Shown piece by piece: positions 14,101 to 53,379 of a DNA stretch of 64,000 nt (the stretch's first letter is position 1; each line of letters starts with the position of its first letter). Position numbers and translations under genes: made by a program. Under the pieces are notes generated by a model. The model made no database searches, was not told the DNA's origin, and saw nothing but the letters and a program-made list of their open reading frames with translations. Location: the NCBI GenBank assembly GCA_051294375.1, contig CM119269.1, positions 20,755,665 through 20,819,664 on the forward strand. Direction: 5' to 3'. This DNA comes from Paraspadella gotoi (taxonomy: Eukaryota > Animalia > Chaetognatha).

Positions 14101-17100
14101 AATCATTCCTCCTTTGCTAGATATACATGATACCTATATTTATTATAATGGGTAATTTCTTTATTATAGTTTTTATTTTTAACCAATTTCAAACTTAAAC
14201 CTAAAGACCCATTGTGGATCCACAATTTCTAATACTTTTAGTATAATTGGTCCACTGGCTTTTACGTGGTGTTTTTTTGTTTTGTTTTTTCTTGTTTCTT
14301 TTTATCTAGGATTTGAGATTTATTTTCGGTATTTAGTTTTTCTATGATTATAAAAATAAAACCAAAAAATAGAATCAGAGATTGTATAAAAATGAAAGGA
14401 AAAAGAAAAGGGAGGAAAAGGAAAGAGATGAGGGGATTAAGTGGCGCAGTTTTACGTCAATTTACGCCATTCTATGCCAGAGCATGTTAACTTAATAGTT
14501 TTATCTGGAAAATAAAAAAGTTTTCACGCCACAAAATAAAATTATATTTATATGGTTTTCTGATTATTTTACGCCATTCTACGCCACACCTGTATAAAAA
14601 AAGGGTGGATAAATCTATAACGCAATTTAACTGAATAGTTTTTATTAAAAAATAAATTAAAAGCCTTTAAGTCACAAAATTAAATAGTAGTTATATGGTT
14701 TTTTGATTATTTTACGCCATTTTACGCCACAACAGTATAATAAAATGCCAGATAAATCTTTAAAAACACTTAACTGAATAGCTTTTACCAGAAAATAATC
14801 AGAAAGTCTTTACGCCACATCATGATATCATATCATGGTTGTACCAATTTCATAAAATTCAGCTCCTTGTATTTTGATGCTAGTGCGGAGTACAATAAGT
14901 ATTCCCCGATCTAATACTAAGGGAGTGGTCTTTTCATACAATTGAAACATTCTTTGAAATATTATACCACTTCATTGATAGGGAAGCCAGGTACTCTGGG
15001 AGTGAATAAACGAGACTGTGAGAGAGTCTTAATTGAAGCTTGCAGGGACCTGCTATGTAATTATCTTGTAAGAGTGATGGAGGCCTTAAACCACCAAAGC
15101 CTGTCCAAAGTCAGGGGCAAGATAGCTTATTTATTAAATGAATGGATAATTTTATATTGGTGTTTACCAATTTCATTAAACGGTTTTACCTTCCTTTCAC
15201 GCCATTTACGCCACAATTTCTTTTCAAATTTAAATATATACAATTATACATTTATAATTATTAACTTAATAAATTTTAAAAATTTATTGGAAAAATTCAT
15301 TAACGCCACATATTTAAATAAAAAATATGTTTGGCGTAGTTTTTATGCCACCAGCGCCAGCAAAAATGTAAAAAAAAAGAAATCAAAGCTAAATGCAATA
15401 CTATAATATATTCTTAATTAGAAAAAAGCCTTTTTAAAAATTTTAGTTAAATATCCTTGACAGCAGTAACGAGGCAGGAAGGTAACTATAAATTGACGTC
15501 AATCAGTCAATCCCATATTTAAAAAAACTGCCAATCAATGATTAAAGTATATTTCGTAAGGCTTAATATAAGGTTTAAATCAATCGAATGAAGAAAAAAA
15601 GTATTTTTAACATTTTTGTGCAATACCCTACCATAAGAAGTTAAAAATTTAGATATGGCTTCTCGTTATCAAGATCTTTAAAATTGTCATGTTTCATATG
15701 AATTTTTGGATTTGTTTGCTTTAATTAAATTTGCTTTAAGTAAAAACTATTACAAATTACGTTTTAATTAAGTTCTTTATTTTTTCCATCGTTGCTTTTT
15801 CTGATTTGTTTAAAAACGAGTTCATTTCTGCAGCGGCTGGATTTCTTTCTCTTTCTCTCTTATTCTCTCTCTCATACACGCGTTTTTTGGTTTTATCTAT
15901 GAATGATTATTACCGCATCAATAATTGGTTATCATTGTATTAATAATTGGTTATTATTATATTAATGATTTATTATTACATAATAATCAATTACTATTAT
16001 ATCTATTATTATTATATTAATAATCAATTATTATTACATCAATAATAAATTACTATTACATCTATAATAAATTATTATTACATCTATAATAAATTATAAT
16101 TATATCTATAATAAATTATTATTACATCAATATAATAATAAATTATTATCGCATTAATCGTTTGTTTTTTTTTGTTTTTTTTTCAGTAATTTTTTTTAAT
16201 CACTATAGATCACTATATTTTTAGGTTGAGTGATTGTGTAATATCCTAATAGCGAATGACGTCCCATTTTAGAATCTACCCGAACGATGTCCACCTCTGC
16301 GATGCGCCCGAACGGGTCGTCTTACGTTTTCCCGCCGGTAATTTAATAACCAGTGAAAATTAAACAAGTAGTGGTGAGTCCTTCCGTCAGAGCAGTTACT
16401 TTGTAGCTTGCCTTGTTATTAAGCATCGTGTGATCATGTTCAATGAGTAAGAGACTAGGGAAATACAGAGGGAGCGCGCAGCGACGAAGACGACAATCAC
16501 GATGCTTAGTAACAAGGCACGCTACAACATACAGAAGGCTTCATATTATAAAATTAGTCACTCCTTTTTTGTGACCACCAAACTACATGATTGAATTTCA
16601 TGAATTTTATTTAATTATTTATTAATTATTATAATTTTAATTATTTCTTTTTAGAATATTTTTTTATCTATTATGTTTATACAATGAAAAGGTCATCAGT
16701 TGGGAACCTATTATACCCTTCATGGATTTCGGCTCTTTAATCCCAATATCCTTCCTTTCATTCCTCTTGATTTGCCCCTCTACCGGTCTTTCCTTGGTTA
16801 CCTCCTCCTCCGTCGCCTGCTTTTGTTTCTCTTCTGTCCGTCCTGTGCCCTCCTCCATCTCTTTCCTTTGTTGTTCTCACTATTTATGTCCTTAGTCTCT
16901 CCCCGCGCGCGATACCTTCTTCATTTTTGCGGCGCTTCCTGTGCGCCCCTCCTGTTCGTTCACCTGCTCTTGTTCCACTTTCCTTGCCTCTGTTTCCATC
17001 CTTCCACGCTTGTTTTCTGTCTCTTTGCGGTGCTGCGTGCTGCGTCTGTGTCGGCTCTTCTGCTTGTCTCTTGGTTCGGCCAACTGGTGCTACCTCACTC

Positions 17101-20100
17101 ATTGGCTCTTGCCTCTTTCCTCAGTTTCGACTTTTCCCCTTATATGTTGAGTCTCAGTGAGACTTCGCGTTTCCCTCTCCTCTTCTTTTTCTCTTCTCAC
17201 GACCCCGCCGAATCATTCCCTAGCTACCACCCCCACTGCTTCTCCTACAATCTGCCCTGGCCCCCACTCCCCCGGCCATTCTCCTTTCCTTCTTTTCTTA
17301 TCTTCCTCTCCTGGTCTCTTTCTCTGTCTCTGCTACTCTCTCTACTCTTCCGCGTGCGCCCTCTCCGCAGTCGCTCGCGGGTACGCATATCCCTGTTGTT
17401 CTCCTCCTCCCTTAATTTGTTTTCCTTTTCCTTTCCATCACCGCCGTCTTCGTCCGTGCTTGCCTCTCCCATCTGGTTCGCGCTCCGGTGCCTGTCCCTT
17501 CCGCGCTCGCGCCTCGCCGTTGCCCCTCATCTCACGATTCAGCCGCGCGCATCCGCGTCCCCGCCGCCGCTCGTCGCTCCGCCGGCGAGCCGCGTGCCGC
17601 TTCCGCCCTGCGGCTCTGGCGGCGCCCGACCGGCCCGGCCGCCGCGCTGCTCCCACACGCCGCCCCGCTCCTGGGTTGTTCGGCGGGGGGGGGGGGTATC
17701 GCGCCCGCCACCGGTCTTTCGCCTCCTACCGCGCGCCGCGTTTGTCCAGTGCGCCGTTGTCGCGCGCGCGCGGGGGACCCCCGCGTCGTATTCGGTTCGC
17801 GCCTCCTGCCGTGGCGCCCCCCGTTCGTCCCTTTCTCTTCTCCGGCCTCCGCCTCCTCCCTCGGGGATCCTTTTTTCACGCCTTCCTTTCTGCTTACCTT
17901 TTGCGGCCTTCCCTTGTTTGACCGTGCTTCCAAGTTTCCCCGCCCCCTTTTTTTTTTTTTTTTTCTGTTTTTTTTGTTTTGTTTTTTCGCCCCCCCCCAT
18001 CCTCCTCCGCCCTTTCTTTCCGCCCCCTCGCCTTTCCCGCCGCCTGCTCCGCTCCTCTCCTCCCGCTCTCCCCGCTGTCCTGCTTTGTGTCCTCGTTTTT
18101 TTGTTTCCCTCTTGCCCCCTCCTTGCACCTTTTTTTCTCCCCCCTCGGCGGTCCTCCTTCCTGCCCTTCTTTTCCGCCCCCACCTGGTCCTCGTTGTGTT
18201 CCTCTCGCACCCCCCACCACCCGCTGCCAGGGGTTCCGCCGTACTTACTCCCACGTTTCATCATCCCTCTGGCTACCGGGACGGCCCCATCCTGCGCCAT
18301 CCGCCTTCCGCGCGCCCCTTCTTCTATTCCCCTTTCTTTTCTTCCCTCTAGCTTATTTTCGGGCATGCCGCCCCGCCTTCCCCCGCCTCCTCGTCGCCCT
18401 CCGTCCCTCGGTGCCCGGCGGCCGGCGCGCGCGCCGCCGCCATGCCGCCTTCCGACCTGCTCGCGCTGTTCGTGCGTGCCGCGCGCCCGCCGGCACCCTC
18501 GAGTTGCCTTCCCCAACCCAGCAGTTTATTCGCACCGCCCTCTACGCGTCTCTCGCTCCCCCCGCCCGCCCTTTTCGCCGCTTTTCCCCCCGCCGCTCAC
18601 CGCCATCCCCCCGTTCTGCCCCCGGGTTTTCTCCGCGGGTGGTCGGGCGCCCGGGCGCCCTGGTCCCGCTTGGGCGACTGTGCGCCCCCGGCGCTGCTGG
18701 CCGCCCTGCCGCGCGCGCGACTAGCGGCGCTTGTCCCTTTTGCCTATTCGTTGCGCCCAGCTTCCTCGCGCCCCCCTCTTCGCGTTCTAGTGTTCTGCTT
18801 TTCCTCCTTCCTCGTGCACCTTCCCTTCGCCGCGTGCTTTTTCTTGCTTTTCCCACACAACGATACGCCTATACCATGGAATATTGNNNNNNNNNNNNNN
18901 NNNNNNNNNNNTGAAGGGTATAATAGGTTCCCAACTGATGACCTTTTCATTGTATAAACATAATAGATAAAAAAATATTCTAAAAAGAAATAATTAAAAT
19001 TATAATAATTAATAAATAATTAAATAAAATTCATGAAATTCAATCATGTAGTTTGGTGGTCACAAAAAAGGAGTGACTAATTTATAATATGAAGCCTTCT
19101 GTATGTTGTAGCGTGCCTTGTTACTAAGCATCGTGATTGTCGTCTTCGTCGCTGCGCGTCCCTCTGTATTTCCCTAGTCTCTTACTCATTGAACATGATC
19201 ACACGATGCTTAATAACAAGGCAAGCTACAAAGTAACTGCTCTGACGGAAGGACTCACCACTACTTGTTTAATTTTCACTGGTTATTAAATTACCGGCGG
19301 GAAAACGTAAGACGACCCGTTCGGGCGCATCGCAGAGGTGGACATCGTTCGGGTAGATTCTAAAATGGGACGTCATTCGCTATTAGGATATTACACAATA
19401 CTCAACCTAAAAATATAGTGATCTATAGTGATTAAAAAAAATTACTGAAAAAACAAAAAAAAAACAAACGATTAATGCGATAATAATTTATTATTATATT
19501 GATGTAATAATAATTTATTATAGATATAATTATAATTTATTATAAGATGTAATAATAATTTATTATAGATGTAATAGTAATTTATTATTGATGTAATAAT
19601 AATTGATTATTAATATAATAATAATAGATATAATAGTAATTGATTATTATGTAATAATAAATCATTAATATAATAATAACCAATTATTAATACAATGATA
19701 ACCAATTATTGATGCGGTAATAATCATTCATAGATAAACCAAAAAACGCGTGTATGAGAGAGAGAATAAGAGAGAAAGAGAAAAGAAATCCAGCCGCTGC
19801 AGAAATGAACTCGTTTTTAAACAAATCAGAAAAAAGCAACGATGGAAAAAATAAGAACTTAATTAAAACGTAATTTGTAATAGTTTTTACTTAAAGCAAA
19901 TTTAATTAAAGCAAACAAATCCAAAAATTCATATGAAACATGACAATTTTAAAGATCTTGATAACGAGAAGCCATATCTAAATTTTTAACTTCTTATGGT
20001 AGGGTATTGCACAAAAATGTTAAAAATACTTTTTTTCTTCATTCGATTGATTTAAACCTTATATTAAGCCTTACGAATATATACTTTAATCATTGATTGG

Positions 20101-23100
20101 CAGTTTTTTAAATATGGGATTGACTGATTGACGTCAATTTATAGTTACCTTCCTGCCTCGTTACTGCTGTCAAGGATATTTAACTAAATTTTTAAAAAGG
20201 CTTTTTTCTAATTAAGAATATATTATAGTATTGCATTTAGCTTTGATTTCTTTTTTTTACATTTTTGCTGGCGCTGGTGGCATAAAAACTACGCCAAACA
20301 TATTTTTTATTTAAATATGTGGCGTTAATGATTTTTCCAATAAAATTTTTAAAATTTATTAAGTTAAATAATTATAAATGTATAATTGTATATATTTAAA
20401 TTTGAAAAGAAATTGTGGCGTAAAATGGCGTGAAAGGAAGGTAAAACCGTTTAATGAAATTGGTACAACCAATATAAAAATTATCCATTCATTAATAAAT
20501 AAGCTATCTTGCCCCTGACTTTGGACAGGCTTTGGTGGTTTAAGGCCTCCATCACTCTTACAAGATAATTACATAGCAGGTCCCTGCAAGCTTTCAATTA
20601 AGACTCTCTCACAGTCTCGTTTATTCACTCCAGAGTACCTGGCTTCCCTATCAATGAAGTGGTATAATATTTCAAAGAATGTTTCAATTGTATGAAAAGA
20701 CCACTCCCTTAGGTATTAGATCGGGGAATACTTATTGTACTCCGCACTAGCATCAAAATACAAGGAGCTGAATTTTATGAAATTGGTACAACCATGATAT
20801 GATATCATGATGTGGCGTAAAGACTTTCTGATTATTTTCTGGTAAAAGCTATTCAGTTAAGTGTTTTTAAAGATTTATCTGGCATTTTATTATACTGTTG
20901 TGGCGTAAAATGGCGTAAAATAATCAAAAAACCATATAACTACTATTTAATTTTGTGACTTAAAGGCTTTTAATTTATTTTTTAATAAAAACTATTCAGT
21001 TAAATTGCGTTATAGATTTATCCACCCTTTTTTTATACAGGTGTGGCGTAGAATGGCGTAAAATAATCAGAAAACCATATAAATATAATTTTATTTTGTG
21101 GCGTGAAAACTTTTTTATTTTCCAGATAAAACTATTAAGTTAACATGCTCTGGCATAGAATGGCGTAAATTGACGTAAAACTGCGCCACTTAATCCCCTC
21201 ATCTCTTTCCTTTTCCTCCCTTTCTTTTTCCTTTCATTTTTATACAATCTCTGATTCTATTTTTGGTTTTATTTCTATAATCATAGAAAAACTAAATACC
21301 GAAAATAAATCTCAAATCCTAGATAAAAAGAAACAAAAAAAAACAAAAAAAAAACACCACGTAAAGCCAGTGGACCAATTATACTAAAAGTATTAGAAAT
21401 TGTGGATCCACAATGGGTCTTTAGGTTTAAGTTTGAAATTGGTTAAAAATAAAAACTATAATAAAGAAATTACCCATTATAATAAATATAGGTATCATGT
21501 ATATCTAGCAAAGGAGGAATGATTGTAAACAGAAAAAAAACACGATAAATCTTAAGATCATAATAAATATATTATATCAGTTTTATACATATTGATGATT
21601 CATAAGCTTTAATATACAATAAAAAGATTATATAAAATGACTATCGCCAGAACTGCTGCTGGCGCATTTTTGCGCATCATTTTTGGGAATTAACAATGAT
21701 CAATTTGTTTGAAAGAAAAAACATTTGCATCTCCTGTAACCAGAGGTTTTGCGAGGAAAGCCTAGTTTTTGCGCTACAATAAAAAAATATTGCTTTCTGT
21801 ACTATTTCAATATTCTTATTATTTATAATATTCTTTTTCAATTTTTTGTGGATTTCGGCTCTTTAATCCCAATATCCAGGTATAGGCGTATCTTTGTGTT
21901 GAAAGCTAGAAAAGTCACGGTCAATTAAGTTGGTAGTAATTATGAATATAACACTATAACGGCAAGAGTTTGTCGAGTAATCTTGGCGCAACTAATAGCA
22001 AAAGACAATCGCCTCTATCTCGCTTCTTGCAGGCTCCATCAAGCGCCTCGGCTTCAGTCCGCGGCCATGCGCCCTGCGCCGACCGCCTTAAAAACCCGGG
22101 CATTAACGGTAGCGACGGCGGTAAAAGCGGCGAAAATGCCGGGCGGGTTATCGATAACGCTATAGGCGGCGAAAACGGCGGTGGAAGCAACGATGGTTCC
22201 CTCTTCGTTTCTCCGTCGAACAGCGGATCCACGGCGGATCTGCTGTCTCTTCGCGCCGCCGCCTCCGGTTCACCGTTGACTGAGTCTACTGGAGGTCTGG
22301 GTGGAATTCTCGGGGTCGTCATGCCCGAAAATAAGACTAAGGGTAAGTTAAAGTAAATTGGACTAGAAAGAAGTGTTTCTCTTAAGGCTTATGTCTCAGA
22401 TTGTTCCTTCCCCTAGCCATAGGGATGATTAAACGCTGGAATAATTTACTTCCTGGAACCCCGCGCGTTTTTTTTTCTATAGTGAACACAACAGTACCAG
22501 TTTTGTTGGCGGAAAAGAATTTCAGAATGTTATTTTTACCATGGTTTAGAAAAAAATTCAATTAGTTTCAATAGTAAACAAAAAAACGGGTACACAAAAC
22601 TGCAGACATTTTTTATCTATTTGAGTATTATTTATGGATCAGGGGTGAAAGGTAGGGGGTTAAAGAAGGGCGGGATTAGGAGTGGGTGGGTTGGTAAAAA
22701 AAACATAAAAAAAAAAAAGTTTTAGTTGGTAAACTGGAACCTTCAACAAGTTAAGCCTCAAAAGTTAACTCAAATGATGCGAAAAAATTGACCGAGTAGA
22801 TTCTAGTCCTGAAATATAAAATTTTATAACTGTATTTTTTCGATGCAGAATCTCTACCGAATACGACTCTTTTTCCCGCCGCTCACGACAAACGCGCTCC
22901 TGGATGCGAAAGACGCCTACAAGTATCGGGTGAGCATCTCGGCGTGGCGCCTTCCATATCCTCATGCGTAATCGGCACGGCCCCGTCTTCTACGAGCGGT
23001 CTTGGTGACGCTTCCTACGGCATCTTTGGTGGCAACGTCGTTTCGAATGGACAGTCACCGGGCGAACCAATGGGAGAGGAAGTTCACGACGCAAACTCGG

Positions 23101-26100: not shown

Positions 26101-29100
26101 AAAACGAATGAACCATGCATCTTCAAACCAAGCTTAATTATTGAAAATTTATAAATTTTAGTTCTAAAATACGTATTTATATATGTTTAAAACGTTAATG
26201 CACCTGATGCTACTAAAAAATTTTAAAAAAATTTAAAAAAATTTTTTTTGAGAGAATTAGAAGTTATTAAAAAGTGTTCAATTTTGGCCTTACTAGGTAT
26301 ACTTTTAAGATTTTTTATTTTAGAGATGAAACGAAAAATCGTTGGAATAGCAATTTTTATTTTTATTATTGAACATGTTTCGACTCTTAGTGATACGAGT
26401 CTTCATCAGCAAATTGCTATGCCAACGATTTTTCGTTTCATCTCTAAACTATTTTAAATAGCAAAAAAGAAAGTCAATATACAATGATTTTTTTTATTCA
26501 ATTATTTGTTCAGTCTCTACGACCTCAGCATCAGCAACTACATCGACTCATCATCTCTCCCAAAGAGTATTTGGACAGCTTTCCCCATCAGCCCGTGCCG
26601 ATGTTACGCTCCGTCAATGCTAGAGGTAAAGGGAAAATACAGGCTGAAGACTGAAGAGTCAGTTTATTCTAAATGTGTTTACGGTTACGTTCATGGCATC
26701 TCTCCCTCAGGATCGAAACCGCGAGAGTTACAAATGTTAACAGATAAAATTTTATTTTTGCCGACTGGGGTAATGGAGTTTTTTTTATTATAAACCACTT
26801 AAAAATATTTAGTTAAAAATTAAATATAAAAAAAGTATTACCTAATTACCCTAACCCTAACCAGTAAACCATCCTTAACCCTAAACCACAACCCAACCCC
26901 GATGGGCAAAAGTAAAATTATGCCTGTGAAGAGACAGTAATTATTGTTTATGTGTTAGTGACAGAACCGTTAAATATAAGCAGTCCCTGAGCTTCGGATC
27001 AGGCTGTAACACCATGTTACAGGCGGGTTAAGCGCCCCGTCCCTCTAACTGCCAGACGACCACCGGGCTAGAACCCCGAACCTTGGGTTGGGAGGCGAAT
27101 GACTTGCCTCCGGCACCAATGCCGCTGATGAACGGTTGGTGGGTTTTAGTCCACCATACATCCCCCCTCCCGTAGGAAGAGGTCTGTTGCGTCTCTTCAG
27201 TGAATTGTTGTTGTTGTGGAAAGTGCGTCACCAGTTGAGGCATGTTGCCTGATGTTTGAGGGCCGGAAAGTGCATCGCCAGGTTGAGGCATGTTGCCTGA
27301 AAGTGTTGTTGTTGCTGTTTGTGTTCGGAAGTCGGGCTCACCAATGAAGAGACAGTAATTATTGTTATGTGTTTAGTGACAGAACCGTTCAATATAAGCA
27401 GTCCCTGAGCTTCGGATCAGGCTGTAACACCATTGTTACAGGCGGGTTAAGCGCCCGTCCCTCTTAACTGCCAGACGACCACCGGACTAGAAACCCCGGA
27501 CCTTTGGGTTTGGGAGGCGAATGACTTGCCCTCCGGCACCAATGGCGCTGATGAACGGTTGGTGGGTTTTAGTCCACCATACCTGTGAGCAATACAAATA
27601 TTTAATGGACCAAAAGGATAAAAAACTAGTAAAGATAGTATGATAGTACATTATAATTTTTAACATTTCGTGACATTATATCTAATTATCTATGCAACCG
27701 TAAAATTTATAGAGATTTATAATAATCGGTTTTGAAGGTCTGTTTGGTATTTTCTATGATGTATAGTATAACATATTTGCAATGAGTGTTTATAACATAT
27801 TTATAACATATATTATACATGTTTTATAACATATTTGTAATGAGTGTTTTAATGACTGTTTGTTAAGATTTTAAGAGGAGGTAAAATTTGAAACTTTATC
27901 AATTCAATTTTCCAATTTTTTTTCCTGATGATTAAAAGTACTTAAAATACAAGGGAAAATGTAGCATTTTTTCTCCTGTTTAAATGAATGTAAGTTAATT
28001 CGAATATCAAAAAATAACACTGACAGCCAAAAATATAAATCAAAGATAGGTTAGCATTACTCATTTTATTGGTTCAATGAACGAAAATAAAACCTGTACC
28101 AAGTTTTAGCATAAAAATAGAATATTTTATGTTGCCCATTTCATAATTTTTTTAAAACTTTTTATCACTATGATTTTTTAAAATTAAAAAAATTTAAGTT
28201 TTAAAATTGAAATAAGAATATGAAATCTATACCACATTGAAGAGCCGGGTACATTTCGCATACTATACCTTTTTAAGTTTTGATAAGTTGTGACTTCATT
28301 AAACATTAAAAGGTAAAAAATCAAAATTTTATCGAAAAATTTGAATTCTTTATTGGGACGAAGGAGTTATCAGAATTATGTAAAAATTAATATATTTAGA
28401 AAGGCTGACGGCGGGCTATAAAATGACCACAATTTAAGTGTCTATGGGAGAGGGAATCTGCAGATATGGCCACAGGAAATGTTTACAAACGAGAAAAATC
28501 CTACTGTAAAATTGTTAAAATGATAATAGTGTACATGTAAATAATATAAGGTGGTCTTTCATAACAATTGAAACATTTTCTTTGAAATATTATACTGTTA
28601 CGGTTACTTCTACTCAGAAACCGCGACAGTTACAATACTACTTCATTATAGGGAAGTTCAGGTTCTATGGGAGGGAATAAACAAGACCGTGAGAGATGAT
28701 TGAAAGCCTTGCAGGGAACTGCTAATGTCATTTTCTTGTAAGAGTGATGGAGGCCTTAAACCACCAAAAAGTCAGGTAAAGAATAGCTTATTTATTAAAT
28801 GAATGGATAATTTTTACATTGATTGTACCAATTTCAAAGAGAGAAAACAGATTTTCAAGTAAATATTTTACACCAGACAAACGACGGATACCAATCCGAC
28901 CGAAGTCACTTCGGCGACGACGACGCTGGAACCCTCGGCGCCGTTGGCCGGACGACCGCCGTTGCCGCCGACACATGGCCCCGGCACTGTTCCCAAAATG
29001 GATTCGCGAAGTCGTCCTCGCGGAGTCTACGACTCTGGAGTACAACCAGCCGCTGTCGGGCCAGCCTCGACGCCGACTGAAGGAAACTCTGAATTTAGAC

Positions 29101-32100
29101 CCGATTACCGGATCTGTTCTCGAGCTATGGCCTCGCGAAAGTACATTGACCTGTTTCAACAGCAAGGTTAGAAAAGAAGAGAAACGGGATAAGATCCTTT
29201 TTTCAATTTTACAGCAAGATTCCGGCTCCTATAATTCACTTTGTCAGTCCGTCGGTCCGCCCGCCCAATCTTGTCGGGCATCACTATGAACCATGCATCT
29301 TCAAACCAAGCTTAATTATTGAAAATTTATAAATTTTAGTTCTAAAATACGTATTTTATATGTTTAAAACGTTAATGCACCTGATGCTACTAAAAAAATT
29401 TTAAAAAATTTAAAAAAATTTTTTTTGAGAGAATTAGAAGTTATTAAAAAGTGTTCAATTTTGGCCCGCCTTACTAGGTATACTTTTAAGATTTTTTTAT
29501 TTTAGAGATGAAACGAAAAATCGTTGGAATAGCAATTTTTATTTTTATTATTGAACATGTTTCGACTCTTAGTGATACGAGTCTTCATCAGCAAATTGCT
29601 ATGCCAACGATTTTTCGTTTCATCTCTAAACTATTTTAAATAGCAAAAAAGAAAGTCAATATACAATGATTTTTTTTATTCAATTATTTGTTCAGTCTCT
29701 ACGACCTCAGCATCAGCAACTACATCGACTCATCATCTCTCCCAAAGAGTATTTGGACAGCTTTCCCCCATCAGCCCGTGCCGATGTTACGCTCCGTCAA
29801 TGCTAGAGGTAAAGGGAAAATACAGGCTGAAGACTGAAGAGTCAGTTATTCTAAATGTGTTACGGTTACGTTCATGGCATCTCTCCCTCAGGATCGAAAC
29901 CGCGAGAGTTACAAATGTTAACAGATAAAATTTTATTTTTGCCGACTGGGGTAATGGAGTTTTTTTTATTATAAACCACTTAAAAATATTTAGTTAAAAA
30001 AAATTATAAAAAAGTATTACCTAATTACCCTAACCCTAACCAGTAAACCATCCTTAACCCTAAACCACACCCAACCCCGATGGGCAAAAGTAAAATTAAT
30101 GCCTGTGAAGAGACAGTAATTATTGTTATGTGTTAGTGACAGAACCGTTCAATATAAGCAGTCCCTGAGCTTCGGATCAGGCTGTAACACCATGTTACAG
30201 GCGGGTTAAGCGCCCCGTCCCTCTTAACTGCCAGACGACCACCGGGCTAGAACCCCGGACCTTTGGTTGGGAGGCGAATGATTGCCTCCGGCACAATGGC
30301 CGCTGATGAACGGTTGGTGGGTTTTAGTCCACCATACATCCCCCCCCCGTAGGAAGATGTCTGTTGCGTCTCTTCAGTGAATTGTTGTTGTTGTGGGAAA
30401 GTGCGTCACCAAGTTGAGGCATGTTGCCTGATGTTTTGAGGGGCGGAAAGTGCATCGCCAGTTGAGGCATGTTGCCTGAAAGTGTTGTTGTTGCTGTTGT
30501 GTTCGGAAGTCGGGCTCACCAATGAAGAGACAGTAATTATTGTTATGTGTTAGTGACAGAACCGTTCAATATAAGCAGTCCCTGAGCTTCGGATCAGGCT
30601 GTAACACCATGTTACAGGCGGGTTAAGCGCCCCGTCCCTCTAATGCCAGACGACACCGGACTAGAACCCCGGACCTTTGGGTTTGGGAGGCGAATGACTT
30701 GCCCCCGGCACCAATGGCCGCTGATGAACGTTGTGGGTTTTAGTCCACCATACCTGTTAGCAATACAAATATTTAATGGACCAAAAGGATAAAAAACTAG
30801 TAAAGATAGTATGATAGTACATTATAATTTTTAACATTTCGTGACATTATATCTAATTATCTATGCAACCGTAAAATTTATAGAGATTTATAATAATCGG
30901 TTTTGAAGGTCTGTTTGGTATTTTCTATGATGTATAGTATAACATATTTGCAATGAGTGTTTATAACATATTTATAACATATATATACATGTTTATAACA
31001 TATTTGTAATGAGTGTTTTAATGACTGTTTGTTAAGATTTAAGAGGAGGTAAAATTTGAAACTTTATCAATTCAATTTTCCAATTTTTTTTCCTGATGAT
31101 TAAAAAGTACTTAAAATACAAGGGAAAATGTAGCATTTTTTCTCCTGTTTAAATGAAATGTAAGTTAATTCGAATATCAAAATAACACTGACAGCCAAAA
31201 AATATAAATCAAAGATAGGTTAGCATTACTCATTTTATTGTTCAATGAACGAAAATAAAACCTGTACCAAGTTTTAAAGCATAAAAAATAGAATATTTTA
31301 TGTTGCCCATTTCATAATTTTTTTAAAACTTTTTATCAACTATGAATTTTTAAAATTAAAAAAATTTAAAGTTTTAAAATTGAAATAAGAATATGAAATC
31401 TATACCACATTGAAGAGCCGGGTACATTTCGCATACTATACCTTTTTAAGTTTTGATAAGTTGTGACTTCATTAAACATTAAAAGGTAAAAAAATCAAAA
31501 TTTTATCGAAAAATTTGAATTCTTTATTGGGACCAAGGAGTTATCAGAATTATGTAAAAATTAATATATTTAGAAAGGCTGACGGCGGGCTATAAAATGA
31601 GCCACAATTTAAGTGTCTATGGAGAGGGAATCTGAGATATGGCCACAGGAAATGTTACAAACGAGAAAAATCCTACTGTAAAATTGTTAAAATGATAATA
31701 GTGTACATGTAAATAATATAGGTGGTCTTTCATACAATTGAAACATTCTTTGAAATATTATACTGTTACGGTTACTTCTACTCAGAAACCGCGACAGTTA
31801 CAATACTACTTCATTATAGGGAAGTCAGGTTCTATGGGAGGGAATAAACAAGACCGTGAGAGATGATTGAAAGCTTGCAGGGAACTGCTATGTCATTTTC
31901 TTGTAAGAGTGATGGAGGCCTTAAACCACCAAAGTCAGGGTAAAGATAGCTTATTTATTAAATGAATGGATAATTTTTACATTGATTGTACCAATTTCAA
32001 AGAGAGAAAACAGATTTTCAAGTTAAATATTTTACACCAGACGAAACGACGGATACCAATCCGACCGAAGTCACTCGGCCGACGACGACGCTGGAACCCT

Positions 32101-34967
32101 CGGCGCCGTTGGCCGGACGACCGCCGTTGCCGCCGACACATGGCCCCGGCACTGTTCCCAAAATGGATTCCGAAGTCGTCCCTCGCGGAGTCTACGACTC
32201 TGGAGTACAACACGCCGCTGTCGGGCCAGCCTCGACGCCGACTGAAGGAAACTCTGAATTTAGACCCGATTTACCGGATCTGTTCTCGAGCTATGGCCTC
32301 GGAAAGTACATTGACCTGTTTCAACAGCAAGAGGTTAGAAAAGAGAGAAACGGGATAAAGTCCTTTTTTCAATTTTTACAGCAGATTCCGGCTCTATAAT
32401 TCACTTTGTCAGTCCGTCGGTCCGCCCGCCCAATCTTGTCGGGCATTCACTTATATCATGTCAGAACATCGAATTATGATAAATTATGCAAAAAGAAATG
32501 TCCGTCCGTCCATCTGTCTGTCCGTCCATCCGTTAATTAATTATCTGATCAGCTGCTTACCGCTATTGATCGTGGGCAGATCCGGCATTGTTTGTTCAAA
32601 CTTGTTTTGAATTCTTTCGAATCGTTAGTTTTAACCACTATAGCTTTCTTAAGAAACCTGTCCCTTTTTTGACGTTACTTTGATGTCCTTTAGATTGATT
32701 TGACCACCTTTTTGACTTTGACGGAAGAGGATCTTCGGAACCTCGGGATCTCCACGTTTGGCGCTCGTCGCAAGATGCTTATCGCTATCGCCGACCTCAA
32801 CGCCAGGACGTCAACGAACGTGCTGCAGGTTAGTCGACTCAATGTTGCTATACTTATCAGTCGCTCTAATACTCAGCTTTTGTGCATAGGTGCATACTGC
32901 ATACGTTAATAGTATTATTATTATTATTATTTTTTTTTTAAACATCAGGCCCATCAGCAACGAATATCATCAACGGATGATCATGCGAACAACGTTAACA
33001 CCTACTCCACGCAAGACATTTCTTCTCGACCGAGCAGTAGCGCGTTCTCGACGTTTCCGCAACCCAGCGGTGGCGGCGTTAGCTGCAGCGGCTCCAGTTT
33101 CGCCAATTACGCTCCGGATCATGCTGCATCTTCTTTCAATGGAAACAGCAAAGGACAGGCCCACTTGAGCAACACCAACAACTCCAGCCACAACAGCATC
33201 GGTGGGAGGGCAGAGGGCAGCGCACTGCCGCCCGCCGATTTCCCCTCCTTCCTCTCGTCGTCTGCCCACCGATTTTCCCAACGTCTTCTCGGCAACAGAG
33301 TGTCAGGGTGAGTAAGCTTCACGTGAGAAAAAAAATTTGGACGAGCGTAATTGCATACTAATACGTAATGAAACCAAAGGTATGAAATGTTTCATTCCAT
33401 CTGTTTTAATTAGATAAAGTTTAGCGAATTATTGTTTTTGGGTTATAAAAATAGGATGAATACTAATGATTTATGAAGATGGCGGAGAAAAATCCATAAA
33501 AAAAAAACCCAAAAATTTAAGAAAATGACACTGATATAAGATAAAAAAAAGCAAGTCTTCCATCCGTCGCAGCTCCGGTGCTTTCAACTCGGCCTCTTCA
33601 TCCCCTTCCGGCTCCTTCTCTTGCGAGGCCGTATCCCGTCGATCCCCGTCCTCGTCCTTCACCGAGGGAACGGCGGTCAGCTCCTCGGCACCCAATCGAC
33701 GCGGAGGCGGCGCTCCGTCTCCTAACTCCCCTCTTCGTCCGCCGCCGGGTTTTGCTTCTTCGGCTTCTGCCTCGGCCTCCAATAATGGAACACCGCCGAC
33801 AGTGAGAGAGTTTGCTTTTGCTGTAATTTCATAATTTTGATAAGGGGAGGGAAAAAATATAAGCTTGAGGGGTATTTAAGGCGTGAGGAAATAAGAGGGA
33901 AAATCGTATATTTCGCGAAGAGTAGAAACGGGAGAATGTATCGCGAGACAAAATATACCGAGGGGCAGGAGGAGGAGGAAAGAAGAGGAAGAGGAGAATG
34001 GGACGGAGAGTTAAATCCTCCTCTGAGAAGTTAGACTGAGAGAAAGGGAAGTCTATGCAAAATCATTTGAGAAAGATACATCGCTGAGGAATGAGGATAG
34101 AAACAGATCTCAGGCTTGGGGCCGTATGTTGATTGACTTGTATGTAGAGAAAATTGAAAATAATTCATTCTTCCGCAGCATCCGACAGGGACTTCGCTTT
34201 TTGGCCCGTCCGACCACGCCAACGCGCCTTCCGCCCTTGGTTCTTCCTTTCGCTTCACTCACCCTCCGCCTCACCCCGACGACGATGACAGGGATGCCGC
34301 CTCTGTCTCCACAGGTTGGACGAGATGTTTTTCTATCAGTTTTTTGAAATTGTGAACTTATTTTGTGAGTTTTTATGAATATATGCTTTATACTAACAGT
34401 ATTCAATTTATGGCGCTCAAGTATTAATTTAAACTTAAATGGCATAGTTTTATTTACGAGAATGTTCGTGCTTTTTCCTGCTCCATTTTTGGATTTTTGG
34501 ATTTTACAATAAGAACGACTTACGTGGTAATGTCGAACGTGCATAATATGCTCTTGTAGTCGCAACCAGTAATATAAATCACTTTTTTGAATTCACGTAA
34601 AATATTTTTAAATATTCGGCTTTATTACTAGTATTTCCCTAGATTCTAGAAATAGAAATAAGTGTTTTACGATTTAAGGACACAAAATTTAAATGATCCT
34701 CTCTTTATCGCAGAGATTTTCCCTCTGGGCGCAAAACGCGATATCACTCGAGTGATGTCATCCTTCTCTTCTCATTCTTCCTCCGTTCCTCCCTCTCCCC
34801 CTCCTTCTTTCTCTTCTTCCTTTTCTTCCTCTCTCTTTAACCCTTCCTCGCGCCGTCATCGCCATCACAACACCGCTGCCGCACGCGCAGCTCTAGCTCC
34901 AGACGCGCAGCACGCTGCTGCCGCCAAAGGATCTTCTTTCTCCGGCAGCTTTTCGGGCCGTTGGTGA
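5162..34967 (+). CDS. BicC: Bicaudal-C RNA-binding protein (N-terminal KH/KH-like domains, long low-complexity linker, SAM domain). Inferred exons: 5162-5405, 6438-6611, 6693-6805, 9003-9135, 9313-9513, 9593-9747, 9883-9978, 10711-10857, 11021-11244, 11390-11463, 11553-11774, 11936-12057, 12129-12869, 13140-13322, 13391-13439, 16273-16337, 16692-16751 joined to 21878-21879 (one exon split by an assembly artefact), 21969-22342, 22849-23100, 23985-24141, 25395-25667, 29696-29808, 32041-32333, 32694-32828, 32949-33307, 33552-33801, 34179-34314, 34714-34967
   Basis: Diagnostic BicC/BICC1 peptides: EERFRVDRKKLE, WPSKLKIGAKSKKDPHIKV, RVTLKMDVSFTDHSHVIGKGGNNIKKVMEETGCHIHFPDSNR, AEKSNQVSIAG, CLPLVLMFD, KPKPKQPSKSVIVKS, DKRAPGCER, DYEEQKLLATKAM...WSGLGFSKSMP, SAM domain DLPDLFSSYGLGKYIDLFQQQE/IDLTTFLTLTEEDLRNLGISTFGARRKMLIAI, and C-terminal SGRW*. 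Intron phases chain consistently (5601 nt in total). The start codon and non-conserved linker exons are less certain. Confidence 0.95.
5701..5930. repeat. Imperfect inverted repeat (MITE-like) in BicC intron 1
   Basis: CGGATTTGAATTCCTTACAAAAAGTTGATATAAGAAA versus TTTCTTATATCAACTTTTTGCAAGGAATGCGAATCCG. Confidence 0.6.
6693..11774 (+). CDS. BicC: BicC KH-domain exon cluster
   Basis: GxxG loop HVIGKGGNNIKK at about 9420-9455 and conserved BicC KH/KH-like peptides across nine exons with matching splice phases. Confidence 0.95.
14441..15360. repeat. Element with reiterated TTTACGCCA(C/T) motifs and internal repeats of about 140 bp
   Basis: About 10 copies of TTTACGCCA-like motifs; interrupted by the 14837-15176 repeat. 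Confidence 0.6.
14837..15176 (+). repeat. Dispersed repeat of about 250-340 bp (copies at about 25000-25245, 28551-28836, 31721-31999; artefactual copies at 20454-20793 and 53405-53663)
   Basis: Shared core CTTCATTGATAGGGAAGCCAGGTACTCTGGGAGTGAATAAACGAGACTGTGAGAG...GATAGCTTATTTATTAAATGAATGG...GTACCAATTTCA. Confidence 0.8.
15905..16155 (+). repeat. AT-rich minisatellite (unit of about 21 bp, ATAAATTATTATTACATC-like)
   Basis: Repeated TTATTACATC/TTATTATATC units; a related reverse-strand tract lies at about 37345-37460. Confidence 0.7.
16401..16527. mobile_element. Small hairpin or MITE with about 30-bp inverted ends in a BicC intron
   Basis: TTGTAGCTTGCCTTGTTATTAAGCATCGTG ... CACGATGCTTAGTAACAAGGCACGCTACAA (2 mismatches). 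Confidence 0.7.
16752..18886 (-). other. Degraded reverse-complement read of about 21870 onward, with A miscalled as C
   Basis: CACAACGATACGCCTATACC near 18856 matches the reverse complement of 21879-21898; CTTATTTTCGGGCATGCCGCC near 18352 matches the reverse complement of 22316-22335 with A>C; the segment is strongly A-depleted. Confidence 0.88.
18912..21847 (-). repeat. Inverted duplicate of 13775-16722 (probable assembly artefact)
   Basis: Nearly exact reverse complement beginning at the N gap 18887-18911. Confidence 0.92.
24212..24381. repeat. Dispersed purine-rich repeat of about 130-170 bp (copies at 12895-13023, 33863-34024, 55623-55798)
   Basis: CTTGAGGGGTATT...AGTAGAAAC.AGAGAATGTATCGC...CAAAATATAC.GAGGGG...AAATCCTCCTCTG; ends are imperfectly inverted. 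Confidence 0.8.
26369..26412 (-). ncRNA. Minimal type I hammerhead-like motif (Penelope type); duplicate at 29551-29594
   Basis: Minus strand TTG-CTGATGA-A-GACTC-GTATCACTAA-GAGTC-GAAA-CATG-TT-CAA: core intact, 3-bp stem I, 5-bp stem II, palindromic stem III, GUU triplet. Confidence 0.65.
26927..27581 (-). mobile_element. Non-autonomous miniature LTR retrotransposon (TRIM) with tRNA-derived sequence in its LTRs (Helenus/Cassandra-like architecture)
   Basis: Direct repeats of about 235 bp at 26927-27160 and 27345-27581 (minus strand TGTATGG...CTCTTCA). PBS TGGTGAGCCCGAC lies just 3' of the 5' LTR (27331-27343). PPT GGGAGGGGGGA lies just before the 3' LTR (27161-27171). CCTG flanks both ends (26923-26926, 27582-27585). 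Confidence 0.85.
27056..27125 (-). ncRNA. tRNA-Gly(CCC)-like cassette inside the TRIM LTR (not a functional tRNA)
   Basis: Minus-strand consensus GCGGCCA-TTGGTGCCGGAGG...TCGCCTCCCAA...GGTCCGGGGTTCTAGCCCGG-TGGTCGT shows an acceptor stem, an A-box-like and a B-box-like (GGTTCTAGCCC) motif and a CT-CCC-AA anticodon loop; the anticodon stem is disrupted. Confidence 0.65.
30106..30752 (-). mobile_element. Second copy of the same TRIM within the tandem duplication
   Basis: Same LTR-PBS-PPT-LTR layout and the same CCTG flanks (30102-30105, 30753-30756). Confidence 0.85.
32041..32828 (+). CDS. BicC: BicC SAM-domain exons (intact copy)
   Basis: Exons 32041-32333 and 32694-32828 encode LPDLFSSYGLGKYIDLFQQQE|IDLTTFLTLTEEDLRNLGISTFGARRKMLIAIADL. 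Confidence 0.95.
32380..32595 (+). mobile_element. Possible Helentron/DINE-1-like non-autonomous element in a BicC intron
   Basis: (GTCC/GTCT)n microsatellite blocks with a GC-rich 3' stem-like end (CTGCTTAC...GTGGGCAG), between T-rich flanks. Confidence 0.35.
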
Positions 34968-37900
34968 CGACGGTCTCTTGGTATTCGGTGTTGACTTTTT
35001 AGGTGGGTGTGTGACCTCGCGAAAGAAACTAACTAAACGGGATTCGACAATATTCTTAAGGTCCACGCATGACAGCTATATTGACTGCTTTTGAAACGGC
35101 GAACGTATCCGATCGCGAAAGTGTGTCTCCTACAGAATATTTTAAGGAAACTTATGTTCCTTATCCCCCGATTCTTGTAATGTTCAACGCTATTCTCTTA
35201 GTTAATGCCCTGTTCCATTTTCAAAATTACAAGCCCCTAAATGTTGTGAAATATTGACAGTAAAGTTGTCCAAGCAACTTCACCCAAGTAAGCCAAATTA
35301 TTACGTATTTACGTATTTTTTTTTTTCGCTTAAATTTAACGGAGAGTAAAGTTAAGTCGCATACGCACAATTAATCTCAACTTTTGAACAAAAGCACTTT
35401 GCATATTCTGTACATAACTCTACACGTGCCTTATCTGAAAACAATTTTTTTTGTTTTTTTTATAATGTACACCGATTTTTTTTACCGCACTCGTTTTTTC
35501 CGAGAAGGTTAAGTGCTAATATTTTTTGCGACAAAAAAAAAATGGTTCTATTTTACATGAAAGAATCTCCATATCTCCTCGTCTGGCTTCATTATTCTTT
35601 TGAGTAATGTTTTATTGTTACACGACAAACGCCAAAAATAAACTACTAGTTTCTTTCCGCGATTTAGCGTGAAATATTTCGACAGTTACAACCAGGGGTG
35701 TGCTGATGGTTCCTTTGTTCTCTGTATTACTTTTGATATTTTGTTGAAGTCGGTACGAGTATGAATATGTATGTGATTTCTAAAACAGTTTAATATGTTA
35801 GTCCTTTTTAGTTTTGACCTGAACAAAAGAGAAATCAAAAATTTCACTCCTGGGAGAAACGTATGTCGTTATCATGACATAAGCTTTATTTAAATTAGAA
35901 TTAGCTTTCTTGCTATTTCTCCTAAGATTTTATTTTAGAAATAACTTTTTCTTCCAAATCTCTTATTTGATGTATAATAACAATAAAATTTTCACTATCA
36001 CCTAATTATTAATTCGTCTCCCAAAATAGGGCTTTTTATTTTTTTTTCTTGACGATTGTGACCAAATCAGTCTCAAATGTTATTATTTTATCGTGGTTTT
36101 AATCCTTTGTTAATCCTTTAGATTATGTGCATTTTTTACAATGAAACATGGAAAGAACTTACCAAAAAACCTTTTATTTTTCATGATTTCATTTAATTTA
36201 CGTTAATTGATTAACTCGTTGCTTATGACCGACTTTACGATCGGTATATAACTATATTCTTATCCAGCGATTGTTTCGACGTTCATTAAGACCGAAAGGA
36301 AGATTTCGAGTATTGAAAGTTGTATTTCATAAATTTTACGTAGTTTCGCCGCGAGTATTCGCAACTCTATAAAGCTATCTTTTCCGAAAGTGCCCCATTT
36401 TTTTTATACCAAAATTTGATTTTATAACTTTAATATTTAATTTAAATATATTTTTAAATTTAGAAATTAATCCTTATCCCGAAGCCTAACCTATTTTATC
36501 CTTAATTTTTAACCCTAATCTCTAATCCTAAAAATAATTTCCAAAACCCTGGTCAGCAAAAGTGAAAAATTAATTTGATTCCAAATTTAAAACGGGAAAA
36601 TAAGGCTTTTTATAAAACACTTGGGAGTCAGTTGGTCAGTAATTTTATCCCACTTACCTTAAAAATATTTATAATTTAGGTAATATTTTATAAAGTTTAT
36701 ATTTATAACCCTAAATCCATTACCATATTTATATTTTGTTATTTTCATTGACAGGAAAAGAATGTATATAAGCGACCACTAGCATTACCTTTGTTATTAA
36801 AAAAATTTATAAATAAAGAATGAACGATTTCCGATACAATATATGTCGAATATGTATATACGTAATAAGAAAATCTCTGTGGCGCAACATACATTGGAAT
36901 CTCAGTTCTTGTTTAACTGAATTAGAATTTTAAAAAGTTGATATATCTTCAAGTATTTCGCAGTTTTACCCCCGAAATACCTATTTCTCCACCCTTCCGG
37001 TAACGCATTTCACCAAGAAAGTCGAGATTCGCGAGCGAGCGTAAAAATTTCCGTCTTACGCGAAATCGTTATCATCAGTCTTCGCGGATGCGGATTTTTT
37101 GCTCAAATTTTCTTGTGGCGAAGTTAAACGTAGTTGTCATTCTATTTACACAACAACAACAAACTTAAGAGATTTGTACCCAAATCTCTTTCGGTCTCCT
37201 CGCGCGTTCTATTGGATTCGTGCATATAAATTGTAAAATTTTATTTTCGCCAACTGGGATTTTAGCTTCTTTTGAAAAATAAGAAAAGAAATCTTAAAAG
37301 AATAATGATCTGGACAAAAATTAAATCAAAAATAAAAAAAAAGAATGATTGATGCAATAACAAATGATTGATGCAATAACAATGAATTGATGTGTTGATG
37401 ACAAATTATTGATGCGATGATACTAAATTATTGATATGATGATAGGGAATCATTGATGGGGAAAACATTTTAAAAATTCAATGACTTAATAAAACGAGAT
37501 GAAATGAATAAAAGGAATTTAATAAAATTGAATGAATGAATTAAATTTATTTAATTAAAATGAAAGAATTAAAAAAAATTGTATTGAATAAATAAATTTA
37601 ACAGTAAGAACTGAATTAATCAAATTGAATGAATTTAATTTAAAAAATTGAATGAATAAATGTGAGAGAGATAGAGATAGAAAATGAGAGAAAATTATGG
37701 GAAAAGAAAAAAATAATGCAAAGCTGAACACGTTTTTAGACGAATCAGAAGTGGCAGTGAGCAACTAAAATTTTGTTTTTATAATACTATATTCAAATTT
37801 GTATATTACAATGAATCATAATGTGAAAGAAATTCAAACAAAAAATAAAATCCTATCGCAGAGGAATCAAAACTCCAGAATCGAAATCGGATCAACGACT

Positions 37901-39320
37901 CTAGTAAAATCCACCAGAACCAGAATGGAACATTCTCATTGGTCAAGAGACGAATGGCACCGGCCAATGATAGGATGGGCTTCCATCCGCCCGTGATTTT
38001 TACCCTTACTTCCGATCCGATGGAACTGTATAAATTTGAACCCAAGTTTGTATTTGATCCATAAACAGAATCCATAGGAAACATAGCTTATCATCAAGAT
38101 CTTTTAAAATAACACATAATTTTTTATCTTTTTATAAATATATATTTTACAATTTCCAGTTGTAAAAAAACTTGACGACGACGTGACGCAATAGTAAACC
38201 ATTATCTTACCCAGGATGTGCCTAGGTCCGTCTGGCGATATAAATAAATTTATTCAAAAAAAAATTATTACTTATTTTAATTTGAATAATAATTATTCCA
38301 AAATTAGCTTTAAACCACTTTTAAATTACTTTTAACCTTAAAATACCCCTAATCCAAGTCGGCGAAAGTCAAATTATGCCAAAAAGTTTTTTTTCTTTAA
38401 AAAACTAAATACGCATTGGGACATTCGGTTAACGTTTACATTTTAATCTTTACACATACATACTTCGCTCTCCACTTTCCTGATTACGATCTTACTTCTA
38501 GTACTTCAGGGTTTTATTAGAGTTTTTAATATTTGGCGACGCTCATTTTGATTTTCTAATATTATATGCCTTTCTGTCTTGCCCTCATACCAAATTGTAC
38601 ATTTCGCTAGTGAAAGTATTGTCAAATTACCCCGAGCGGCGAAGCAAAGACGCATATTTTTATCGTTTTAATTTTCCATGAAATTTTGCCCCCCCCCCCA
38701 CCTTTCGTTTTGAGCCGTTGCCAATTAAGGTATTTCAACTGTGATATTTAGACAATCACTCGAAATTTTTATTTTTTATTTTAGCAATAATTTTTTTCGA
38801 CGCGATGCAATATGAGTACATCATAGTCAAATACGATAGGTCTAGTACTTTCTTAGCGTGTTTTGTAGATGTAAAATAGTCATGTGAAAAGCATTCACAG
38901 GAATCCCTTGATTTGTACTTTCGAGCCACTTTAACTGACTCACTCCCCATTTCAAGATAAAGATTAAAGACTAAACTTAACTTTGTTTTCTTAAGAAATT
39001 TAAAAGCTAGAAGTCGAGACAATTAGCGTTACGTTACTGAACACTTTTTTAATGATTTTAGAGTAAGTCTTCTCAATCTACGCCTTAGAAAATAAGTTGA
39101 GAACTTCATTTTCACGTGTGTACTGATTAATTGAAAAAAATAATATAAATGGAAACAAAGTCAATGTAATTTTTTTTTAACTTTAAAAATATTACTAATG
39201 TAAAGCTTCATTTAGTTAAACATGGCAACTCCTTTTGAGTCAGGCAGCAGCAGCGCCTTTGGATTGGTGTTCGTTTTCGATAAAAATATAATATGGGTGA
39301 CAGATGACAACAATCCATGT

Positions 39321-44962: not shown

Positions 44963-44997
<35 letters not shown>

Positions 44998-52886: not shown

Positions 52887-52929
<43 letters not shown>

Positions 52930-53379
52930 TCCTCTCTCTTCTCTCTCCCATATTATTTGTATTTTTTCAAACGAAACAAATAGTCTTGAGTTTTTAAACC
53001 CTATGATTCACGATTCAGTTTAAGTGCCAAACCAATCCTTCCAAAATTTAATTGTGACAAGTTTTTTTCTTCCTTTTTTTCCCCCTTTCGTCCTTCATTG
53101 CTCTTTTTTTTCTCTCTTTTCCTTCCTCCTTTTCTTTCATTTCCTCTCTCATTTTTTCTTCCTTTCCATCTCTTGCTCTTTACAATTTTTTTTCCCTCTT
53201 TTATCTCTTTATTAAACCGCGAAGCAAACTTTTATGGTTTAAGGTTTTTTTTTTTCGTCATCATCGTCCTCGTCATCCCTCACTTTCTCCTTTCTCGCGA
53301 TTCGTATTCCTCCTCTCGAATCATGAGGCGTCGCGTTTCATTTCCTTTCCTCGTCGTCGTCGTCGTCGTCGTCGTCGTC
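51557..53379 (+). repeat. Duplicate of about 43168-44985
   Basis: Collinear near-identity with small indels; ends at the N gap 53380-53404. Confidence 0.88.
51882..52362 (+). CDS. Two candidate exons of an unidentified gene (SSVGGGEDICEDTDLKGFQPCFNGKRWRMGFPRGNFLPPIRVRLPEPWRPDRCATGKEHEETLMLQ | GSCPCCGNKIKKATPM); frameshifted duplicate at about 43499-43990
   Basis: GC-rich islands bounded by CAG acceptors and GT donors, with phase-0 continuity in this copy. Confidence 0.5.

Follow-up and report, generated by a model that had tools for sequence, protein, structure and literature searches.

A window of 64,000 nucleotides (nt) from the chaetognath Paraspadella gotoi (GenBank assembly GCA_051294375.1, contig CM119269.1, positions 20,755,665–20,819,664 of the forward strand) was analysed around a short repetitive element. 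The element is a non-coding terminal-repeat retrotransposon in miniature (TRIM) on the minus strand, with two long terminal repeats (LTRs) of about 233 bp, a 184-bp interior, a primer-binding site (PBS), a polypurine tract (PPT) and a 4-bp target-site duplication (TSD). This anatomy had been described in an earlier note made from the sequence, and it was found at the place given there. In each LTR, a degenerate tRNA-like head is followed directly by a predicted twister-type ribozyme fold, which is the main subject of this work.

All positions below are those of the window, and all parts of the element lie on the minus strand. The 5' LTR (27345–27581, 237 nt) has the termini TA...CA, which are family-wide in read contigs. 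The interior (27161–27344, 184 nt) begins next to it and contains an 18-nt direct repeat (27282–27299 and 27234–27251) and the PPT (27161–27171). Two nucleotides, TG (27159–27160), stand 3' of the PPT and are missing from the integrated 5' end. The 3' LTR (26927–27158) has 232 nt, or 234 nt when the TG after the PPT is included. The TSD reads CCTG on the plus strand in its upstream (27582–27585) and downstream (26923–26926) copies. The PBS (27331–27343) is of the tRNA-Trp type and agrees at 12 of 13 positions with the tRNA-Trp end printed in Fig. S2 of PMC10886601, the kind used by Gypsy-32_NVi. Because PBSs of this kind are used by Gypsy elements, a Gypsy helper is likely, which agrees with the earlier proposal that an autonomous LTR element mobilises this one in trans; no autonomous helper element was found within the 64-kb window. 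Two features of the interior were also observed: its 3' end (27159–27198), including the stretch 27182–27198, is complementary to the LTR 3' end (26927–26965), and the PPT folds as a hairpin with a UACG loop.

The insertion is present twice in the assembly. The second copy (30102–30756, minus strand), with twister folds at about 30158–30231 and 30575–30647, is part of a tandem duplication of 3.18 kb, whose alignment of 3216 columns has 8 substitutions and 88 gap columns. The CCTG TSD flanks both assembled copies. Because the flanks and the TSD are identical, the second copy is not an independent insertion, and the TSD represents one insertion only; the duplication is probably one insertion assembled twice from noisy long reads. 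No further copy was found in the window beyond 26927–27581 and 30102–30756. The assembled copies are 655 and 647 nt long, within the TRIM size of less than 1 kb, and the GC content of the element is 52% versus 36% and 24% in the flanks. The first copy has one ATG frame of 87 amino acids, which was rejected as a coding sequence, and the second copy has no frame of at least 90 amino acids. The 5' and 3' LTRs differ by 2–4 substitutions and 9 gap columns. At least one of these substitutions is real, because it is common to both 5' LTRs; the LTR–LTR differences are mostly assembly noise. A recent insertion, which had been concluded from the near-identical LTRs, is thus plausible, but differences of this origin do not date it.

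The stretch or part of it is represented in eleven sequencing runs, and read contigs from four of them (X1, X3, X5 and X9; 13931, 17151, 3224 and 1099 pieces) were aligned to the element. Run X10 (organism B) gave no aligned contig and X11 a single one at depth 2, which is no evidence on other species. At the LTR 3' end, 87, 93, 65 and 25 different contigs exit into unrelated AT-rich flanks (agreement 0.42–0.46), and at the LTR 5' end, 85, 84 and 21 different contigs (X1, X3 and X9) exit at the TA base into unrelated flanks; these counts rest on the best-supported rows among those listed, which hold no 5'-end row for X5. The flank consensus beside both LTR ends is ATAT. Because many contigs exit at exactly the same base, the start of the 5' LTR at TA is not damage, and the two terminal nucleotides that were thought to be missing are no defect of this copy. 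These exits and the ATAT consensus indicate that the family ends in TA...CA and that the CCTG target is atypical for it. The TG is likely a spacer behind the PPT that is trimmed at integration. The family is large, interspersed and multi-copy, so that the other genomic copies expected by the earlier note do exist, though their ends are TA...CA. The summed contig depth is about 1–1.6 million on the element versus a few hundred in the flanks (X1), which is not a copy number and reads as very abundant. The interior of the window copy differs from the majority at at least 9 sites, and therefore subfamilies exist.

The head occupies 27475–27548 in the 5' LTR (A-box-like segment 27530–27541, B-box-like segment 27484–27494) and 27056–27125 in the 3' LTR (27107–27118 and 27065–27075). 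A pair of A and B boxes with at most one mismatch each and 43–45 nt apart was detected in 2 of the 4 LTR copies, which are noisy, and at no other place in the window. The same rule was matched by 99 of 10000 LTR shuffles, or about 1% by chance, and 11 of these had an acceptor stem of at least 6 pairs; the acceptor-stem rule gives 5 for both LTR copies detected by the boxes. Each box has one mismatch in the window copy. The A box keeps 3 of the 5 letters of TRGCY and has one mismatch to the consensus TRGYNNANNNGG, with none in part of the population; the canonical A14 is present in 22–49% of depth (site 30290, which is not in the two-run variant table). In 3 of the 4 LTR copies, the B box GGTTC departs from the wider consensus at one position, and the fourth carries an extra T. 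In folding, one copy of the head forms a 7-bp acceptor-like stem and a T arm (z −2.8), and another copy does not fold in this way (z −0.7). Two common population variants convert G.U pairs of the acceptor stem to G-C.

The identity of this segment is less definite than had been supposed. ARAGORN reported 0 tRNA genes, the Rfam scan gave no tRNA match, and the anticodon stem pairs at only 2–3 of 5 positions. The tRNA-like segment with A- and B-box-like motifs was retained, but its assignment to tRNA-Gly is unsupported because of the missing covariance match and the largely unpaired anticodon stem, and a tRNA-Gly gene or a clear Gly derivative was rejected. The 3' half of the segment may resemble tRNA-Asn at least equally well. 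The sequence features suggest that the head is likely a degenerate, promoter-like remnant, and it probably acts as an RNA polymerase III (Pol III) promoter. Many Helenus elements likewise carry degenerate tRNA-like remnants (Kojima, PMC10886601).

Behind the head, two stable hairpins had been noticed before, and both are present in the LTRs. However, they are not plain hairpins. They correspond to the stems P3 and P4 of a twister-ribozyme fold in P5-permuted order, whose pseudoknot strands are complementary. This fold had been overlooked, and it makes a retrozyme-like route the likely one. The predicted ribozyme lies at 27398–27471 in the 5' LTR (predicted cut 27449/27448), and at 26980–27052 in the 3' LTR (L4 loop 26991–26998, predicted cut 27030/27029). 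Its parts follow in the order P5 5' strand, P2 strand, GA, CGG, a 6-nt strand, UAA, CCC, GC, P3 hairpin, P4 hairpin with the loop UCCGAAGC, and P5 3' strand, which is the order of type P5 twisters in the Rfam alignments of phage examples. In the pseudoknot T1, the loop triplet CCG complements CGG, and T2 is formed from the two GC. T1 is co-changed, the loop UCCGAAGC being paired with GACGG. P4 has 5 Watson–Crick pairs, and the conserved nucleotides of L1 and L4 are present together with T1 and T2 as in type P5 twisters.

A descriptor was written for twisters of the P5 order (GA plus the T1 triplet, NAA, 3–4 nt, GC, and P4 with a U-NNN-AAGC loop). It has 4 matches in the window, one in each of the 4 LTRs and none elsewhere. 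In contrast to the LTRs, only 1 match was obtained in 150 window shuffles (19.17 Mb), 0 in 20000 LTR shuffles, and 0 in 120 metagenome loci preselected for two of the motifs of the fold, none of which was similar to the element by BLAST. The descriptor recovers 34 of 126 phage loci chosen by the canonical twister motif, many of the remaining ones having the P1 order, and 5 of the 7 Rfam-scored P5 twisters among 20 loci scanned. Phage twisters with the same co-changed T1 were also found: when 16 loci were hand-picked by eye from 78 distinct sequences, 13 matched twister-P1 with E values from 2e-11 to 0.016, all under the gathering score. An independent model, built only from 24 of 36 3' modules of phage P1-type twisters, placed the four LTRs among its top 5 matches in 64 kb.

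The fold is also conserved in the population. In 7049 and 989 contig pieces from two runs, only 2 sites of the 75-nt core vary at 3% of depth or more. Both fall within the P3 loop of 5 nt (P=0.004), and the core shows no indel. The other three common variants change G.U to Watson–Crick pairs in P5 (A-U) or in the acceptor stem. Judged from sequence, it is very likely that the fold is twister-derived. It is reasonably probable that this twister still cleaves, and twisters without P1 have been reported to cleave near the wild-type rate (PMC5408937). A low-depth derivative with a contig joint at 30182–30236 (X1 and X6) was also observed, which is without the P3 hairpin and the P5 5' strand and keeps GA-CGG, UAA and P4.

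A number of observations weigh against a functional twister. The Rfam twister models gave no match at E≤5 or E≤10. The phage-module model scores the LTRs weakly (10.6–11.1 bits, E 0.04–0.05), and a site at 8594–8650 (minus strand) without T1 complementarity scores equally. The descriptor was written after the sequence had been seen, with P2 relaxed to 2 pairs. In the element, P2 consists of 2 pairs followed by a C.A mismatch or a bulged A, and type P5 expects 3–4 pairs. The P1 span is 6 nt versus 14–39 nt in 37 of the 37 natural P5-order examples listed, a list that demanded 3 P2 pairs, and no intramolecular P1 helix is formed. The lowest-energy fold has −29.5 kcal/mol versus −18.6 kcal/mol for the twister-compatible nested fold, in which pseudoknots are uncounted, and it hides the cut site, the T1 strand pairing with the bases behind it. 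Co-folding of two cores yields no P1 dimer. The predicted circle is 51% paired (z −1.7, 100 shuffles); retrozyme RNAs are quoted at more than 70% (PMC4918200). The low variation may come partly from a young family, and the contig data carry no RNA ends, strand or level. The 6-nt self-complementary strand that stands in place of the P1 hairpin (27031–27036) and is the candidate dimer helix forms 6 pairs, with a duplex energy of −8.3 kcal/mol, and shows no variation at the 3% level. By an arithmetic estimate, chance alone would nonetheless give such a 6-nt palindrome, wobbles included, in about 5% of cases, and one low-depth derivative contig loses the two central palindrome pairs and keeps the two outer ones. 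The stunted P1 and the blocked fold lower the case for a functional twister and do not remove it, because plant retrozyme ribozymes are also predicted to be blocked and P1-less twisters cleave. The site at 8594–8650 itself has UAA, GCC, a hairpin and GGGUC, without a T1 partner and with a broken P4; it is probably a chance match, possibly a decayed ribozyme.

From these features it is proposed that the multi-copy, non-coding TRIM works as a Pol III-driven LTR retrozyme; for the whole route, we consider the chances about even. Transcription by Pol III would begin at the tRNA-like head in the 5' LTR and run through the element, whose sense strand has no T4 run in either copy (weak evidence alone). 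Both twisters would cut at U|A and release a unit of 417–419 nt (419 nt, or 417 nt for the second copy) without terminal redundancy. The palindromic P1 strands of both LTRs may pair, and the two ribozymes of one transcript would then form a swapped dimer in which each active site combines the 5' half of one LTR with the 3' half of its partner. In such a dimer, cutting would wait for both LTRs, and both ends of the unit would be kept together for ligation. That the dimer is obligate is a tentative proposal, to which we give somewhat less than an even chance. The unit would then be circularised by a host ligase, and the circle would carry a lone, stunted ribozyme and should be re-cut slowly. Given cleavage, this circle route is likely by analogy with hammerhead retrozymes of animals, for which dimeric cleavage and circularisation by RtcB have been reported (PMC7229834), and with plant retrozymes, for which regeneration of the LTRs from circles has been proposed (PMC4918200, PMC7761336). 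LTR regeneration would need the circle because an RNA cut at both sites lacks terminal redundancy. Priming with tRNA-Trp would fall to a Gypsy-type helper, which would copy the circle for more than one full turn, rebuilding both LTRs. It would integrate the product mostly at ATAT-like sites, with a TSD of 4 bp. In the predicted circle, a 9-bp inverted repeat was seen to bracket the tRNA-plus-twister domain.

Other readings of the same features have to be weighed against this route. The twister could act mainly as a 3' end-former that replaces the Pol III terminator. The RNA would then be linear, from the 5'-LTR head to the 3'-LTR cut. Its two ends would be redundant over about 100 nt, strand transfer could proceed in the usual way, and no circle would be needed. 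Such a function is consistent with the lack of a sense-strand T4, whereas in most animal Helenus LTRs inspected by eye (PMC10886601) a T run directly follows the tRNA part, and with the low pairing of the predicted circle; a weak and slow ribozyme, with stunted P1 and P2 and a competing hairpin, would also leave many 5' copies uncut. However, the two ribozymes do not differ in sequence or in their near context, which leaves cutting at the 3' site only unexplained, a swapped dimer would cut both sites, and plant LTR retrozymes of the same layout form circles (PMC4918200). We regard end formation as an unlikely main function. It is also unlikely that the element is an ordinary Helenus TRIM whose LTR twister is a catalytically dead remnant, or whose hairpins are kept for RNA packaging. 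The missing Rfam twister match, the weak model score, the deviation of P1 and P2 from natural P5 twisters and a lowest-energy fold different from the twister would all fit a remnant. In contrast, the motifs of the catalytic core are all intact, both pseudoknots are intact and co-changed, and variation is limited to a loop or preserves pairs, while a hammerhead recognised by eye at the same position in two Helenus families points to recurring ribozyme use.

The role of the head can be questioned separately. A twister retrozyme could be transcribed by read-through or by RNA polymerase II, with the tRNA-like head as a relic or a structural element. Retrozymes have been proposed to depend on read-through (PMC7761336), and the negative ARAGORN and Rfam tRNA searches, the mismatched boxes and the roughly 1% chance of the box pair agree with a head that is no promoter. 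The box order, the 43–45-nt spacing, the 7-bp acceptor-like stem (z −2.8), the acceptor-stem variants that preserve pairing and the subfamily with the canonical A14 argue for a promoter, and the promoter-less reading is considered quite improbable. The proposed Pol III-driven retrozyme could also be part of a wider picture, in which animal LTR retrozymes of this kind have been overlooked and were reached at least twice, with a twister here and a hammerhead in wasp Helenus-2, and in which the twister here works obligately as a swapped dimer, cutting only when a transcript contains both LTRs, and the resulting circle is stable and self-silenced. This wider picture is possible, with the balance tilted against it.

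The remaining sequence of the window contains further duplications and a few coding segments. Near-identical duplications were found at 26108–32451, at 31733–42001 versus 53405–64000 and at 43168–44992 versus 51557–53379, in which single-base indels predominate (92–97%); they likely reflect a redundant assembly of noisy long reads. At 13774–21849, a 2.96-kb inverted repeat (98.75%) surrounds a GC-rich, low-complexity centre of 2.2 kb ending at an N gap, which suggests an artefact, either a fold-back or a chimeric read. Exons of Bicaudal-C lie at 9183–12881 (plus strand) and are 76–85% identical to the 120 matches listed, mostly from vertebrates. An aldo-keto reductase exon lies at 39614–39940 (minus strand), with its best single-domain matches in mites and Daphnia (74–77%). 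A repeat with CCCTAA-like units adjoins the element (26820–26920 and 30000–30100) and has a read depth of about 100-fold that of the flank. It resembles Helentron-associated elements.

In the literature, LTR retrozymes are mainly hammerhead-bearing elements of plants, and the retrozymes of animals are described as non-LTR elements (PMC7229834, PMC7761336, bioRxiv 10.64898/2026.07.22.740005). If the proposed route is true, the circular-RNA route of retrotransposition is also used in animals and with a second class of ribozyme, eukaryotic twisters gain a role besides the 5' processing of RTE elements, and the definition of RNA ends in a Pol III TRIM without a terminator is explained. A dimeric twister joined by a palindrome would be a new ribozyme architecture. 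The same reading predicts unnoticed ribozymes in the published Helenus set.

By the operational definition, which asks for a TRIM whose LTR contains a tRNA-derived part, the element is likely a Helenus. Helenus (TRIMp3; Kojima 2024, PMC10886601) shares with it a length below 1 kb, LTRs with a tRNA-like part, PBS, PPT, the 4-bp TSD of animal members and a PBS of Gypsy type, and the description of the element as a non-autonomous, multi-copy TRIM of this kind fits animal Helenus well. Helenus-2_SyJa and Helenus-2_SyUm from Synergus are nearest in layout, with a tRNA-Trp PBS and a tRNA part placed 5'. In contrast, most of the animal Helenus entries inspected carry the tRNA part close to the 3' end of the LTR, where a T run follows it, whereas here it stands in the 5' half and is followed by the twister fold without a T run. 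In the available text of PMC10886601, no ribozyme is placed in Helenus. Directly behind the tRNA part of Helenus-2_SyJa-LTR and Helenus-2_SyUm-LTR (DataS1 of PMC10886601), a complete type III hammerhead was seen by eye, with a 7-bp stem I, the core motifs and about 12 nt of complementarity between loops I and II; the available text does not mention it. No twister-like motif was noticed by eye among the animal Helenus entries in the accessible part of that supplement, and look-ups of short motifs there gave no match to the LTR start or the PBS. A 12-nt word common to the element and Ajax LTRs was dismissed, as chance alone would produce such a match given the size of the file.

Plant LTR retrozymes (Cervera et al. 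2016, PMC4918200) share with the element a ribozyme in each LTR, a non-coding interior, PBS, PPT and a 4-bp TSD, and also an inferred Gypsy helper and a ribozyme that is blocked in the lowest-energy fold. They differ by their type III hammerheads, a tRNA-Met PBS, highly paired circles of 600–1000 nt and the lack of a tRNA-derived promoter, whereas the present element is from an animal, of twister type, primed by tRNA-Trp, about 418 nt as a unit and about 51% paired. No hammerhead match was obtained in Rfam scans of the element, and a plus-strand hammerhead, for which CTGATGA is present, was rejected by eye, as no stem II-GAAA follows. Although it would act like an LTR retrozyme, the element falls outside that group as defined so far, since its predicted ribozyme is a twister instead of a hammerhead and its unit RNA lacks the high degree of pairing. 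No twister-bearing or animal LTR retrozyme was found in searches of the open-access literature.

Among twisters, type P5 (RF02684) and type P1 (RF03160) share with the fold the GA plus T1 triplet, the UAA cut loop, the GC for T2, P4 with the U-NNN-AAGC loop and the P5 order, and a P3 hairpin is found in many P1-type twisters (RF03160). Unlike these families, the present fold has a 6-nt palindromic strand as P1, 2 pairs in P2, both P3 and P5, and a score below Rfam detection. Twister variants of Perere-3/RTE elements (Liu et al. 2021, PMC8501958) are likewise altered-P1 twisters in animal retrotransposons, and theirs are active in vitro. They stand singly at the 5' end of autonomous non-LTR elements, whereas here two copies lie inside the LTRs of a non-autonomous one; 1.6% of schistosome twister variants have an LTR-type reverse transcriptase within 10 kb (PMC8501958). 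Schistosome SINE-like (short interspersed element-like) repeats with a tRNA part plus a hammerhead, and metazoan non-LTR retrozymes, share a Pol III-type head with a ribozyme, or dimeric ribozymes that make circles, but they are tandem, carry type I hammerheads and are without LTRs, PBS and PPT (PMC6765202, PMC7229834). These comparisons indicate that the P. gotoi element probably combines a Helenus-type promoter and retrozyme logic with a twister. Its likely copying through an RNA circle of roughly 418 nt is a route known until now from plant elements whose ribozyme is of another kind.

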